Shown here piece by piece: positions 3,336 to 32,984 of a stretch of DNA of 40,142 nt (the first letter of the stretch is position 1; every line of letters starts with the position of its first letter). The position numbers were made by a program, and so were the translations under genes. The notes under the pieces were generated by a model. The model saw nothing but the letters and a program-made list of their open reading frames with translations. It searched no databases and was not told the DNA's origin. This DNA comes from a virus, in the UHGV virus genome UHGV-0061378. One strand, 5' to 3'.

Positions 3336-4214
3336 TCAGTAGTTATGTACTGAAGGAGGTAATTCTTTATTCTTAAGTCTCATCCATGCGGAAAGATTCG
3401 TTGGTCCGTCTGGCTCATTAATATCAACATCTCGTGTGTGATTGATTAAAACGTCTCTCGCCATTCCGATAACATACGAGAACTCATGACCGTAGTCGTA
3501 GCATCTGCCGGAATAGTTCGATTGAATTTGTTTTAATGCCGGATACAGTTCGCGGAATAATGCCTGTGAACGGTTAGCATAATCCCATAGCCATACAAGG
3601 CTGTTTGCTTCTTTTTCAGAAAGCTCGTTTGCTTTCTTCTCTTGTTTGCCGACAAACTCGCCTTCAAGCACTACCCTGTGGATGTACTCTACGGCCAGCG
3701 GGATTTGTTCAATTGAAAGTTCATCAATGCTGTCAATACCAAAACGCTGATGAACCATATTGTATGCATCGTCATAGCGAAGTCCTTTCTTTCCTACCAG
3801 CATGTTTACTGCATCGCGTAGCGGCGTTCTTTCCTCAACAGTGGTTTTCTTGCCTTTCACATACTCGCCATGTTTGCGAATTGAAGGTAGAACTTCTGCT
3901 GTTACCCACTTGCGGAATTTGTGCGGGACCGAACCTTTATTGACAGCATCGCGGCAGCGCAGAACCAATGTATACATACCTGATTCGCTAACAATGCTTA
4001 GATTCTGCTCACCACCAAGGGTGTAACTTAAAGTTACTCCCTTTTCATCGTCATCAAGTGCAGTAAGCGCCTTGCGTGAGTTAGTCAGGGTTAAAGCATC
4101 ACAAACATCTTTTGCTACAAACCACGGCTCACCGCATTTGTTGATGACGCGGATTTCACTGTCGCCGAATTTGAAGATGGTGAAATCGTTTTGTGCCTTT
4201 GCTATACTTTTCAT
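3336..4214 (-). CDS. ant: Antirepressor with BRO-N type N-terminal domain
   Basis: Sits in the ant position of the immI region; start at internal ATG 4214 ([11 protein letters not shown]...) with AGGAAA SD, not the track start at 4280. Domain call from memory of BRO-N antirepressors. Confidence 0.75.
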
Positions 4215-4282
4215 GTCAATATTTCCTAATCCGATTTGTTGATACCGAAGCCCTGACTGTTCCCGCAGTTGGGGCTTCAACT

Positions 4283-4799: not shown

Positions 4800-5813
4800 T
4801 TACTTGTCTGAATCATCCAGTTCGTCTGTTTTCACATCCTCAAACCTTGGATGCAGGCGATTCATTTTTGCAATAAAATCTGAATAGTCGTTAGATAGCT
4901 TCATAATCGTAACGGTTGATGACAGATGCTCTCTTAATTTTTGATATCCAATATTTGGCGTCAGCCCCTGAAACAACTTTGTACCTTTTGAGGCCTTTAC
5001 GTTCTGCTTTTTAAGCTCCTCAAGGATGTTTGGTGCCAATCTCTTGTAGACGATATCATTTGTCAAAACGCCAAAATACTGAGGCCGGAAGCGGGGATTT
5101 TCCGGCGGGTATTCTAAGCCCCTTAACCTGAAAAGCTCTTCATAATAATCAGCAGGAAATGTTGTAATATAAGGTTGAATTTCCTTTGCGACAAAGGCCT
5201 CGAGTATTTTGGCGAGTGCATCTTTTTCTCTATCTCGCTGGTACCCCGTCGCTTCATCAACAAGCGCTATTATTCCGACTTTAGCTAATGAGCGCACCAG
5301 AATTTCAGCTTTCTTGGCTGTCTCTAACTGGTTTGGCCTGGTGATAGCGCCTGCCTCTCTTGCCTTTAAATAAACATCGCAGACAAGAGGTATTATGGAT
5401 GCGTCATAACCTTCCTGGACGGAGCCAGTAATCGTCTTGTATTTGACCTTATTGATCACATCCATAACATCTTGATTTATATATTTTTTAAGGTTTGCAG
5501 CATCCATAAAAGCGGGCATATTGATCACCCCCTCTTCTTGAGGTGCTCTACCCCCTCTTTGTGGTCGGCCAAATGCTTTAAAAACAGAAGCTTGTGATAT
5601 GATACGCCGTCCATTTTCGAGAACCGCGACATCTAATTCCGCATCACCGATCTTTAACTTTCCCTCATTCGCAGATACGGGCAATAAAGCTTTTTCTTTT
5701 TTTGCGGCAACAGCCTTTCTTGAGGATTCTTTTCTTTGCTCTGCTGTCATTTTTGCCGCGCGTGCCTTACCGCCTTTGGCCTTCCCACTAACATCATCAT
5801 TTTTCATGAGCAT
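4800..5813 (-). CDS. Hypothetical protein with Lys/Ala-rich N-terminal tail (possibly P63C-domain-like), in the sieA hotspot
   Basis: Long ORF; track start at 5867 is TTG, first ATG at 5813 (MLMKNDDVSGKAKGGKARAAK...). Domain assignment is an unverified recollection. Confidence 0.6.
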   Translation of the reverse strand: MLMKNDDVSGKAKGGKARAAKMTAEQRKESSRKAVAAKKEKALLPVSANEGKLKIGDAELDVAVLENGRRIISQASVFKAFGRPQRGGRAPQEEGVINMPAFMDAANLKKYINQDVMDVINKVKYKTITGSVQEGYDASIIPLVCDVYLKAREAGAITRPNQLETAKKAEILVRSLAKVGIIALVDEATGYQRDREKDALAKILEAFVAKEIQPYITTFPADYYEELFRLRGLEYPPENPRFRPQYFGVLTNDIVYKRLAPNILEELKKQNVKASKGTKLFQGLTPNIGYQKLREHLSSTVTIMKLSNDYSDFIAKMNRLHPRFEDVKTDELDDSDK

Positions 5814-5847
5814 ATCTCGTGTTGTGATTGATAAGTCAATCATACAC

Positions 5848-5865
5848 ATGCACGTTGTAACGTGC
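5848..5865. promoter_or_regulatory. 18-bp perfect palindrome TGCACGTTGTAACGTGCA plus extra half-site (candidate operator)
   Basis: Read directly in the divergent intergenic region between 4800..5813(-) and 5967..6356(+); a third TGCACGT copy lies at 5878..5884. Confidence 0.5.
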
Positions 5866-5966
5866 AATATTTAAATATGCACGTAAATTGCAAATCAGAT
5901 AATGAGGAGACTTTCTCCCCCTTGCACTGACATCATGGTATTCTGCTCAAAACTAAGGAGGTTGGT

Positions 5967-29668: not shown

Positions 29669-29962
29669 TTAAAATTCCATTTGTATTTGATTAGAACGCT
29701 CGGTTGCCGCCGGGCGTTTTTTATTGGTGAGAATCGAAGCAACTTGTCGTGCCAATCGAGCCATGTCGTCGTCAACGACACCCCATTCAAGAACAGCAAG
29801 CAGCATTGAGAACTTTGGAATCCAGTCCCTCTTCCACCTGCTGATCTGCGACTTATCAACTCCCACAGCTTCCGCTGTCTTCTCAGTTCCAAGCATTGCG
29901 ATTTTGTTAAGCAACGCACTCTCGATTCTTAGAGCCTCGTTGCGTTTGTTTGCACGAACCAT
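29669..29962 (-). CDS. cII: Transcriptional activator CII
   Basis: 97 aa MVRANKRNEALRIESALLNKIAMLGTEKTAEAVGVDKSQISRWKRDWIPKFSMLLAVLEWGVVDDDMARLARQVASILTNKKRPAATERSNQIQMEF, near-identical to remembered lambda CII. Confidence 0.93.
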   Translation of the reverse strand: MVRANKRNEALRIESALLNKIAMLGTEKTAEAVGVDKSQISRWKRDWIPKFSMLLAVLEWGVVDDDMARLARQVASILTNKKRPAATERSNQIQMEF

Positions 29963-30070: not shown

Positions 30071-30265
30071 CTATTTGTTTTTCTTGTTGCTTGGGAAAGG
30101 ACGAACTTCCTCTCCAATCACACTGCCATCAGGCTTTACCGTAACCATGATGTTACGGCCTGCCAGAATGGCCTTGCTGATAGCGCACTGGATTACACCA
30201 AAGTCACTGGCTGCTTTAGCCTGTCCATGGATTTTGGCGTAATCGGCAAGTGTCATTCGAATCAT
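30071..30265 (-). CDS. cro: Cro repressor
   Basis: 64 aa [64 protein letters not shown], resembling lambda Cro; GGAGAG SD. Confidence 0.88.
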
Positions 30266-30292: not shown

Positions 30293-30365
30293 AAAGAATA
30301 CTACAGGTATTCAAAGCAATCAATACTCAGGGTATTTTTAGTTTAAGTACCTTAGCTATTAGAAT
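30293..30365. promoter_or_regulatory. OR region: two operator palindromes (GAATAC-N5-GTATTC at 30296..30312; AATAC-N5-GTATT at 30322..30336) with pR and pRM
   Basis: Palindromes read directly. Putative pR on minus (-35 TTGATT, 17-nt spacer, -10 TATTCT); putative pRM -10 TAGAAT about 7 nt before the cI ATG, implying a leaderless cI mRNA as in lambda. Confidence 0.7.
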
Positions 30366-30371
30366 TAAGCT

Positions 30372-31088
30372 ATGGAAAATAAAAAATCACTGACGACAGA
30401 ACAGCTCGAAGACGCTAAGCGGCTTAAGGCTTTGTATGAGTCAAAAAAGAAAGAATTGGGAATAACCCAATACTCAATCGCTGATGAACTGGGTATCACC
30501 CAAGGAGCGGTAGGGCATTATCTTAATGGCAGAAACGCGCTAAACGTTGAGGTTGCATCTGGTTTTGCACGATTGTTGCAAGTCTCAATTGCTGATTTTA
30601 GCCAGTCAATTGCTGCCAAGGTTGCAGAACAGGCAGAAAGCCTTAAGAGCGATGCCAACGTAAGGTATGCAGGGGAATACAGAGCAGGAAAGAGGTATCC
30701 GGTGTTAAGCAGTATCCAGGCTGGCTCGTGGTGTGAAGCATGCGAACCATACACCATTAAAGACATAGATGTTTGGCTTGAGTCTGACGCGCATATTCAA
30801 GGTAATGCGTTTTGGCTTAAAGTGGAAGGTGATTCAATGACGGCACCGGTTGGGTTAAGCATTCCAGAGGGAACATTCGTTCTTTTCGATACCGGAAGGG
30901 AGGCGATCAACGGCAGCTTGGTCATAGCAAAACTTTCTGACTCTAACGAAGCAACATTCAAGAAGCTGATAATCGACGGCGGAAATAAATACCTCAAGGG
31001 ACTTAATCCTGCATGGCCTCTCGTGCCAATCAATGGAAACTGCAAGATTATAGGCGTTGCAATTGAGACAAAACTAAGGCTGGTTTGA
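30372..31088 (+). CDS. cI: CI repressor (HTH plus LexA-like S24 peptidase domain)
   Basis: 238 aa; N-terminal HTH (…ELGITQYSIADELGITQGAVGHYLNG…) and C-terminal S24 region (…EGDSM…KL…); divergent from cro. Confidence 0.9.
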   Translation: MENKKSLTTEQLEDAKRLKALYESKKKELGITQYSIADELGITQGAVGHYLNGRNALNVEVASGFARLLQVSIADFSQSIAAKVAEQAESLKSDANVRYAGEYRAGKRYPVLSSIQAGSWCEACEPYTIKDIDVWLESDAHIQGNAFWLKVEGDSMTAPVGLSIPEGTFVLFDTGREAINGSLVIAKLSDSNEATFKKLIIDGGNKYLKGLNPAWPLVPINGNCKIIGVAIETKLRLV

Positions 31089-31105
31089 TCACGCAAGGGG
31101 CGATT

Positions 31106-31474
31106 ATGGTTGGAACCGCTATAGCAAGCTTTTTTGGGATGTTGGCAATCTCGACAATTTACGGCTTAGCGCATGCTTTTATTGCGAAATCTCTATCAGA
31201 AAAAATAAGTCAGGCTTGGGCGCATAGATCAGCTCGTTTCATGATTCTAGTGATCATAGCAATACAAGGGATATCTGCATTTATCCTCTATGGTTCAAGC
31301 TTATACCTGTTGTATCAAGGCGCGACATTTACGCCTTACACCAGTGATTACGGAACGCTATACGATGGTAGTGAAGACATCTCTATGGCTTGGATCGTCT
31401 TTGGTTTATCTATGGCCGTGTCTGTTGTAGCAGACATCATTAAGGTAATTCTCGTCTTAACCTTCGCTGACTAA
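31106..31474 (+). CDS. Small polytopic membrane protein downstream of cI (rexAB position)
   Basis: 122 aa from ATG 31106 (AAGGGG SD), 18 nt after the cI stop with no terminator between; 3-4 hydrophobic segments. Confidence 0.6.
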   Translation: MVGTAIASFFGMLAISTIYGLAHAFIAKSLSEKISQAWAHRSARFMILVIIAIQGISAFILYGSSLYLLYQGATFTPYTSDYGTLYDGSEDISMAWIVFGLSMAVSVVADIIKVILVLTFAD

Positions 31475-31560
31475 CCCATAATCCCGGCAGCAATAGCTAT
31501 CGGGATCCACTTCACATATCCCGCATAAAAAACACTGAACAAGCAGACACAGAAAAAATA

Positions 31561-31650
31561 AATATCCTTTGTATTCATTTGCTTATCATTATTTCACCAA
31601 AAATAAATACCTTGGGTATTTACACAATAAAATACCTACAGTATTCTTTA
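31561..31650. promoter_or_regulatory. OL/pL region: operator palindromes AATAC-N5-GTATT (31606..31620, 31631..31645, degenerate 31561..31575) with putative pL
   Basis: Same half-site consensus as OR; putative pL -35 TTTACA (31619..31624) and -10 TATTCT. Confidence 0.65.
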
Positions 31651-31733: not shown

Positions 31734-32049
31734 AACCAAAGAGTAGTTGGCTTTGGGGTGACGTGAAGTGCAGCTGCACGACGGCAACCGGAAGATAAGC
31801 ACCCGGCGCGTCACCGCCAAAGTCAATTCCATAGGCGTTATGCAGCCGCCACCATATTCAAGAAAGCTGCACAAGAGGTAGGAGGATTTATGTGAATACT
31901 TACATTCAATTGAGAGATTAATTAAATAGAACTGATCGAGCAGAGTCCATAAAGGCTCATAAATGCTCTTCCATCCCCGTCTAATTGGCGGGGAAGGAAA
32001 CCACTTTGCAATCACTATCAATTCCAAAGTTGTTTCATCGGAGGTCAAC

Positions 32050-32349
32050 ATGACAGTAGTCATTACATATCTGGCTGACGATAACGCCAGAAATCGCCGC
32101 AGAGCACGCAGACAGGCTCAACGTGAGCAGGCAATGCAAGAGCAGCGACTGGCGCGAAAAATTGCGCTAAAGCTCTCTGGTTGCGTCAGAGCAGACAAAG
32201 CAGCATCACTCGGAAGCCTTCGCTGCAAGAAGGCAGAAGAAGTCGAGCGTAAACAGAACCGTATTTACTACCGCAAGCCACGCAGTGAAATTGGTGTGAC
32301 TTGTGTTGGTCGCCAGAAAATGAAATTAGGCAGCAAACCACTTATTTGA
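32050..32349 (+). CDS. N: Antiterminator N-like protein
   Basis: 99 aa from ATG 32050 (GGAGG SD) with arginine-rich motif DNARNRRRARRQAQREQA near the N-terminus; first gene after pL/nutL. Confidence 0.75.
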   Translation: MTVVITYLADDNARNRRRARRQAQREQAMQEQRLARKIALKLSGCVRADKAASLGSLRCKKAEEVERKQNRIYYRKPRSEIGVTCVGRQKMKLGSKPLI

Positions 32350-32360
32350 GAGGAATTAAT

Positions 32361-32984
32361 ATGTCATCAATCCGCTTAACTACGAGAATGAAAGAGAAAA
32401 TCGCTCGTAACGCTTTAATTAAGTCTGGGGTTTTCACTGAACTTGAAGAAGTAATAAAGTTAAAGAACCAGCTTGCACTTGACGCCAGAGTTATTGCGTT
32501 TGGCGGTAAAAAGAAAACTGAGGAAGTGGATCAGTTATCATCCAAGTTAGTAGCTATAAGTGAAGAACTTGAAAAGATGGGATGTTCATTTTACTCATAC
32601 GATGTTCGTTCTACTTCGATTTATCTGACTGTATCTGGAAGAAGGGTTGGCTGGCATTCATACGGAAAAGACGGCAACGGTGAAGATATATTGCTCCCCA
32701 CCCCAGAAAAAGATAAATGCATGTTTGACGCAGAACACGAAATAACAAAAAGGTTTGATGAAATCTGCGCATTGCAACAAAAACTTGAAGCCAAGAAAAA
32801 GGATATCGAATCAAATGTATTGGCTGCTTTGAACTCAGTCACAACAGTTAAGCGACTTATTGAAGTTTGGCCTGAAAGCAAAGAATTGCTACCAAAAGAA
32901 GCAGATAAAGCAAGTACAGCACTTCCTGCTTTACGGGTAGAAGATTTGAATAAGATGATTGGACTTCCTCCCGAGGCCGCATAG
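32361..32984 (+). CDS. Hypothetical protein (ral/sieB/gene-17 position)
   Basis: 207 aa from ATG 32361 with GAGAGG SD, immediately after N; no recognisable motif. Confidence 0.6.
   Translation: MSSIRLTTRMKEKIARNALIKSGVFTELEEVIKLKNQLALDARVIAFGGKKKTEEVDQLSSKLVAISEELEKMGCSFYSYDVRSTSIYLTVSGRRVGWHSYGKDGNGEDILLPTPEKDKCMFDAEHEITKRFDEICALQQKLEAKKKDIESNVLAALNSVTTVKRLIEVWPESKELLPKEADKASTALPALRVEDLNKMIGLPPEAA

Follow-up and report, generated by a model that had tools for sequence, protein, structure and literature searches.

The open reading frame (ORF) at 31106-31474 (+), which follows the cI repressor gene in the 40,142-nt stretch of viral DNA analyzed here (the window), is a real gene under purifying selection. 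It corresponds to hkaS of coliphage HK620, and its product, HkaS, is predicted to be a small polytopic membrane protein for which we tentatively propose a role as a stand-alone factor that would exclude heteroimmune phages at the level of the membrane.

We identified the window as a P22-like E. coli phage or prophage of mosaic composition, with an integrase (14-1207) and P22-type virion genes. The initial annotation had called a 122-aa ORF downstream of cI, and our analyses confirmed this call. The translation matched PHROG 6534, a family of unknown function, over its full length (1-122 of 122, E = 2.9e-79), and the HK620 record (AF335538.1) annotates the ORF as hkaS (AAK28867) with the product "unknown." The window and HK620 copies of hkaS share 97.8% nucleotide and 97.5% amino acid identity, differ by a small number of conservative substitutions, and occupy the same position between cI and oL. 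Thus, the ORF is already annotated and not new; its function is recorded nowhere, and we found no paper on hkaS in the searchable literature.

The immunity region around hkaS

The genes around hkaS are arranged in the order cro(-)/cI(+)/hkaS(+)/oL-pL/N(+). Over the entire immunity region, the window is 96.5-99% identical to HK620 and to phages of related immunity, i.e., HK630, HK140, mEpX2, HF4s, HZ41, vB_EcoP-611R6, phi296/phi367, and two Stx2c-converting phages. The cro gene (30071-30265, -), which is divergent from cI, encodes a protein of the Cro family (Pfam Cro, E = 3.6e-26) that is identical to HK620 Cro. The repressor gene cI (30372-31088, +), the first cistron of the maintenance operon, encodes a protein with HTH_3 and Peptidase_S24 domains and with 99.6% identity to HK620 cI. 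It is followed by hkaS (369 nt; 122 codons plus the stop codon), for which we read a Shine-Dalgarno element, AAGGGG, at 31095-31100 (+). On the downstream side, the slot is bounded by the gene for the antiterminator N (32050-32349, +), the first gene transcribed from pL, which was assigned by its match to PHROG 271 (E = 5e-36) and matched Pfam N_peptide only weakly (E = 0.001; 19.9 bits with a cut-off of 27.9). Consistent with the initial annotation, which had placed the ORF in the rexA/rexB position, hkaS lies in the slot between cI and oL/pL that holds rexAB in lambda.

Using the palindromic pattern AATAC-N5-GTATT, we identified six matches in the window, compared to ~1.0 expected by chance. 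Five of these, at 30297, 30322, 31561, 31606, and 31631, are in the operator regions, and the sixth, at 29673, is outside them. Based on the palindromes at 30297-30311 and 30322-30336 and on the colinear offset from the HK620 annotation, OR1-OR3 together with pR and pRM map to 30296-30361. The oL operators, which close the immunity module, map to 31561-31645 (31561-31575, 31606-31620, and 31631-31645) based on the operator pattern, the HK620 annotation, and conservation of the sites across diverged lineages; pL was placed at 31619-31647 using a promoter scan and the HK620 annotation. We note that the third oL-like site, at 31561-31575, matches the palindrome (AATATCCTTTGTATT) and is conserved in the diverged lineages, whereas in the HK620 record, OL3 is placed at the position equivalent to 31583-31599 and "tIMM" at that equivalent to 31556-31586, in a segment that is not conserved. 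The annotated tIMM folded no better than shuffled sequences (z -0.43), and the positions of OL3 and tIMM in the HK620 record may be misplaced.

Directly 3' of the hkaS stop codon, a stem-loop is predicted at 31481-31506 (+) (dG -13.7 kcal/mol, z -3.6). Each lineage has a stable hairpin at the corresponding position; those of the Hafnia-, Salmonella-, and Klebsiella-type loci (L010, L003, and L008) have z values of -2.7 to -3.7 and are unrelated in sequence. None of these post-hkaS stem-loops is followed by a U tract, and therefore, they are not canonical intrinsic terminators. The stem-loop in the window may mark the 3' end or terminator of the cI-hkaS transcript, or it may stabilize this transcript.

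On the opposite strand, a 35-aa hydrophobic ORF at 31471-31578 (-) overlaps the hkaS stop codon by 4 nt, and its ATG is located 3 nt past the operator-like site at 31561-31575. We considered this ORF as a partner or toxin and rejected it based on the observations that at least 17 copies from the E. coli clade carry a frameshift in it and that only 3-12 codons of it remain in the diverged lineages. It is probably a chance ORF, as judged from these comparisons. In the interval between cI and oL, hkaS is the only conserved ORF.

Compared to HK620, ~200 extra bases are present in the window between nutL and N (~31760-32049); these are shared with HK140, in which a 41-aa ORF is annotated there. A terminator-like hairpin is present on the minus strand at 31821-31802. 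The first gene past N (32361-32984, +), which has a low GC content (39.7%), codes for a protein with an Nmad5 domain (nucleotide modification associated domain 5; E = 8.6e-71); HK620 has hkaQ and the SieB-like hkaP at this position instead. In the moron region between the genes for ejection proteins and the tailspike gene, the genes at 3336-4280 (-) and 4800-5867 (-) encode an antirepressor (Bro-N and P22_AR_C) and a P63C-domain protein; the P22 counterpart of this region contains sieA, mnt, arc, and ant.

hkaS is under purifying selection and linked to cI

The spacer between cI and hkaS comprises 17 nt (31089-31105) such that the ATG of hkaS starts at the 18th base past the cI stop codon, in agreement with the initial annotation, in which the start had been given as 18 nt after this stop. 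A purine-rich element (AAGGGG, AAAGGA, or CAAGGA) is present at a constant distance from hkaS in all diverged lineages, and the remaining spacer sequence varies. The claim that cI and the ORF are not separated by a terminator also held: we detected no terminator-like site on the plus strand between the two genes, and the junction folded no better than shuffled sequences (z -0.87).

To assess selection on hkaS, we compared copies at different evolutionary distances. Relative to the Hafnia-type copy, dN/dS was 0.13 for hkaS and 0.03 for cI, and in the other usable pairs, dN/dS for hkaS was 0.15-0.2. In the comparison with the Hafnia-type copy, dS was ~0.72 for cI and hkaS alike, and therefore, the two genes diverged together. 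At this equal dS, dN was 0.094 for hkaS and 0.022 for cI, i.e., hkaS accumulated ~4-fold more amino acid change. Within the E. coli clade, the variable codons comprised 16 nonsynonymous and 18 synonymous ones in hkaS and 6 and 31, respectively, in cI. None of the 83 hkaS copies from this clade, which represent 35 nucleotide alleles and 19 protein alleles, contains a premature stop codon. In the lineages with 52-61% identity, between which dS is saturated, HkaS invariably comprises exactly 122 residues, of which 43 are invariant in an alignment of seven sequences. Because dN/dS, the intact copies, the constant length with its invariant positions, and the conserved ribosome binding site agree, we conclude that hkaS is a real gene, and based on dN/dS (0.13-0.20) and the intactness of the 83 copies, we rejected the possibility of a chance ORF. 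We note that a few HkaS versions in the databases (P0005, P0007, and P0009) have out-of-frame N-terminal segments; these represent either assembly errors or rare copies with a frameshift and are absent from the 83 full-length copies.

The same cI family is encoded 17-20 nt upstream of hkaS in all 91 loci for which upstream DNA was available. We found this cI in 146 of 5426 complete E. coli genomes (~2.7%), and in each of the 146, cI-hkaS-oL is present as a single block that is always chromosomal. The diverged lineages retain the order cro(-) cI(+) hkaS(+) N(+) but have exchanged the N type and the replication genes. This perfect linkage is explained by hkaS being enclosed between cI and the operators with which cI must travel; therefore, it does not argue for a functional connection between hkaS and cI. 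The module occurs in HK620 (Lederbergvirus), HK140 (Hendrixvirinae), and Stx2c-converting phages; thus, the function of HkaS is not tied to one type of virion or injection apparatus.

The slot itself holds different cargo, or no cargo, in phages with repressors of sister clades. In Cronobacter phage ENT39118, it contains an ORF of 120 aa that, by eye, has no long hydrophobic stretch; in Hafnia phage Pocitis76, it contains other small ORFs; and in phage 434, the cI of which is 52% identical to that of the window, it contains hex, the translation of which has a signal-peptide-like N terminus. In P22, the slot between cI and oL is empty, and therefore, deletion of its cargo is tolerated in principle. 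We also observed that the Pocitis76 repressor (locus L094, 1995-2726) has an N-terminal HTH nearly identical to that of the HK620-type cI and a different C-terminal half (51% identity overall), which looks like domain shuffling within cI. In the same phage, a tRNA-Gly gene precedes N.

Predicted topology and relatives of HkaS

Hydropathy analysis of HkaS identified three hydrophobic segments (~3-27, 45-70, and 94-121). The initial annotation had described a small polytopic membrane protein with three to four such segments; the polytopic character and the lower number are supported by hydropathy and by the three long helices in an AlphaFold2 model, while a fourth segment is not. The transmembrane (TM) topology, the prediction of which had been suggested as a check, is predicted from hydropathy and loop charge to comprise three TM helices with the N terminus out and the C terminus in. 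This orientation is predicted based on the positive-inside rule applied to the loop charges: in every lineage, the net charge is +3 to +5 in the first loop, which is thus predicted to be cytoplasmic, and -1 to -4 in the second, which is predicted to be periplasmic. The AlphaFold2 model, generated using the seven-sequence alignment, had a pLDDT of 92 and a pTM of 0.79. Its three long helices span 2-29, 41-73, and 89-121. The cytoplasmic loop contains an additional short helix (31-38), and the periplasmic loop, which is acidic and rich in Tyr, forms a small beta-hairpin. As predicted, HkaS is almost wholly buried in the membrane with nearly no soluble domain, and only ~17 of its loop residues are cytoplasmic.

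Conservation is unevenly distributed over the predicted topology. Mean pairwise identity is highest on the cytoplasmic side, i.e., 84% in the C-terminal element D-[IV]-x-K-x-ILVLTFAD, with which the protein ends (...LVLTFAD), and 71% in the element KISQAWxHRxARF of loop 1; the periplasmic loop (49%) and the outer half of TM3 (48%) are the least conserved. Moreover, four polar or charged residues, Q54, S106, D110, and K113, are invariant and located within the helices.

In homology searches, HkaS had few relatives. A word-indexed search yielded 12 clusters at 90% identity, all of one family, and an exhaustive HMM profile search of 1.84 billion representatives yielded two; no homologue was found in the GTDB species-representative genomes. 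The members are from E. coli, Salmonella, Enterobacter, Klebsiella aerogenes, and Hafnia, and each is named "hypothetical protein." Based on these searches, the HkaS family is a tiny orphan family of Enterobacterales prophages. Against Pfam, HkaS gave only subthreshold hydrophobic matches, including Cation_ATPase_C, which we rejected at 19.2 bits with a cut-off of 27.3. Nothing significant was obtained against NCBIfam, where the holin family TIGR01593 had E = 0.08. No defense family in PADLOC 2.0 was matched at E <= 10 by the window protein or two diverged homologues, a sequence search of the PDB with HkaS gave no match, and fold searches against BFVD and the PDB returned only generic helix bundles, none of which was informative. 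In direct profile comparisons, we rejected homology to lambda RexB (hhalign probability, 0.7%), P22 SieA (0.3%), P22 SieB (<1%), and the S-type holin encoded in the window itself (0.2%).

Possible functions of HkaS and comparison with known systems

HkaS is probably made in lysogens. We infer that pRM would drive hkaS together with cI in lysogens, that pRE would also do so during the establishment of lysogeny, and that the protein would insert in the inner membrane. In the literature, the slot is regarded as a site of cargo that lysogens express (PMC3564112, PMC8585504). Lambda RexAB, 933W Stk, and 434 Hex are encoded by cargo genes that are cotranscribed with lambdoid repressors from pRM, and each excludes some other phage (PMC3564112). 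Similarly, bstA is located just downstream of cI, presumably sharing its promoter, and mediates abortive infection; RexAB, like BstA in the same slot, is an abortive-infection system, and the cI-N interval is a hotspot of mosaic diversity (PMC8585504). Stk is a tyrosine kinase, and BstA localizes to sites of phage DNA replication (PMC3564112, PMC8585504).

Because the other repressor-locus cargo (RexAB, Stk, Hex, and BstA) excludes phages, our working proposal, which we regard as possible rather than probable, is that HkaS acts at the inner membrane as a stand-alone factor to exclude heteroimmune phages. We favor that HkaS would act alone, without a RexA-type sensor, because a sensor partner is missing and the protein has hardly any soluble domain. 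In the preferred version of this proposal, HkaS would interfere with the entry of the phage genome or with a different early step at the membrane, and its working face would consist of the conserved elements on the cytoplasmic side, i.e., KISQAWxHRxARF in loop 1 and the C-terminal element with the invariant D110 and K113. Small inner-membrane proteins that act at genome entry or an early membrane step include P22 SieA, T4 Imm, and HK97 gp15. We count the faster change of hkaS than of cI, the position of the periplasmic loop among the least conserved parts, and the occurrence of the module in HK620, HK140, and Stx2c-converting phages in favor of exclusion, and the lack of homology to any characterized exclusion or defense protein and the generic outcome of the fold searches against it. 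We note that the faster evolution of hkaS may only reflect weaker constraint and that the conservation of the cytoplasm-facing parts is equally compatible with a host partner or a regulatory one.

The slot shared with rexAB, and the precedents of BstA and RexAB in it (PMC8585504), would also fit an abortive-infection effector, in which case HkaS would be silent in the lysogen membrane until an invading phage triggered depolarization or permeabilization, an action that would be RexB-like or holin-like in kind and not in ancestry. The predicted class I holin-like arrangement of three TM helices with the N terminus out and the C terminus in, and the invariant Q54, S106, D110, and K113 inside these helices, are consistent with such an action. 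However, HkaS lacks a sensor partner and has almost no soluble domain for sensing infection, it has no similarity to RexB or to the S-type holin of the window, and it has neither a charged C-terminal tail nor a significant match to TIGR01593. We consider this explanation unlikely. We also find it improbable that HkaS modulates the lysogeny switch by stabilizing lysogeny or tuning establishment or induction, perhaps by sequestering or affecting a factor with an effect on cI or CII (e.g., RecA-dependent cleavage or FtsH). A precedent for this function is Hex, which stabilizes 434 lysogens by lowering spontaneous induction (PMC3564112) and is cotranscribed with the 52%-identical cI; moreover, HkaS has never been separated from this cI family across deep divergence, its most conserved segments are predicted to face the cytoplasm, and pRE would provide for its synthesis in the establishment phase as well. 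Yet, Hex, with its signal-peptide-like N terminus, is unrelated to HkaS, HkaS has only ~17 cytoplasmic loop residues, and the linkage is accounted for by the position between cI and oL.

Purifying selection on hkaS, together with its presence as an intact gene in 2.7% of the complete E. coli genomes as well as in Salmonella, Enterobacter, Klebsiella aerogenes, and Hafnia, is consistent with a lysogenic-conversion factor that contributes to host fitness independently of phages, e.g., by membrane stress tolerance or modulation of transport. We give this explanation a low probability: HkaS has no similarity to a transporter or stress protein, with the match to Cation_ATPase_C below the threshold, and the characterized cargo of the slot is anti-phage (PMC3564112, PMC8585504). 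Finally, hkaS could be a functionless hitchhiking ORF, kept merely owing to its confinement between cI and oL. Such confinement accounts for the linkage, and the HkaS family is tiny, but this explanation is largely refuted by the selection analysis, in which dN/dS is low; the exact length and the 43 invariant positions despite saturated dS between lineages, the conserved ribosome binding site, the absence of stop codons among the 83 copies, and the empty P22 slot, which indicates that the ORF could have been lost, also argue against it, making it highly improbable.

Returning to the proposed exclusion factor, it is possible, although less likely than not, that HkaS represents a new minimal single-protein membrane immunity factor that would shield lysogens from heteroimmune phages without a sensor partner and would found a new family of exclusion or abortive-infection proteins in one lambdoid immunity module. 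As the cargo of this slot in ~2.7% of complete E. coli genomes, with matching phage records that include two Stx2c-converting phages, HkaS would be among the smallest stand-alone membrane defense proteins if it excludes phages, and a membrane-anchored input to the switch if it tunes lysogeny. Either way, the gain would be moderate and would not change a paradigm, and nothing in the sequence would surprise a specialist. HkaS is easily testable because HK620, mEpX2, and HK140 are isolated phages.

Among known systems, HkaS resembles RexB in being a small polytopic inner-membrane protein, as predicted, the gene for which is located in the immunity operon downstream of cI and upstream of oL/pL. 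It differs from RexB in length (122 versus 144 aa), in having three predicted TM helices rather than the four hydrophobic stretches that we read from the RexB translation, and in having no sequence relationship to it; moreover, no rexA-like sensor gene adjoins hkaS. RexAB is recognized by abortive infection with loss of the membrane potential upon superinfection. Class I holins have three TM helices with the N terminus out and the C terminus in, an arrangement predicted for HkaS from hydropathy and loop charge alone. HkaS differs from these holins in that it lacks a charged C-terminal tail, is encoded outside the lysis cassette, and has no homology to the holin of the window (0.2%).

SieA, which blocks DNA injection at the inner membrane, is a prophage-expressed polytopic inner-membrane protein of P22-like phages, and its best-conserved element is predicted to be cytoplasmic (PMC10883804), as in HkaS. 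The SieA motif FxRYPxEAxxFNK (PMC10883804) is, however, absent from HkaS, and sieA is located between gene 16 and the tailspike gene (gene 9), whereas hkaS is located between cI and N. HkaS shares the operon logic and the slot with Hex, Stk, and BstA, all of which have exclusion phenotypes (PMC3564112, PMC8585504), and differs from them in that the proteins are unrelated and that Hex has a signal-peptide-like N terminus. Based on these comparisons, HkaS represents a distinct uncharacterized family of a known kind, i.e., accessory cargo of the lambdoid repressor operon.
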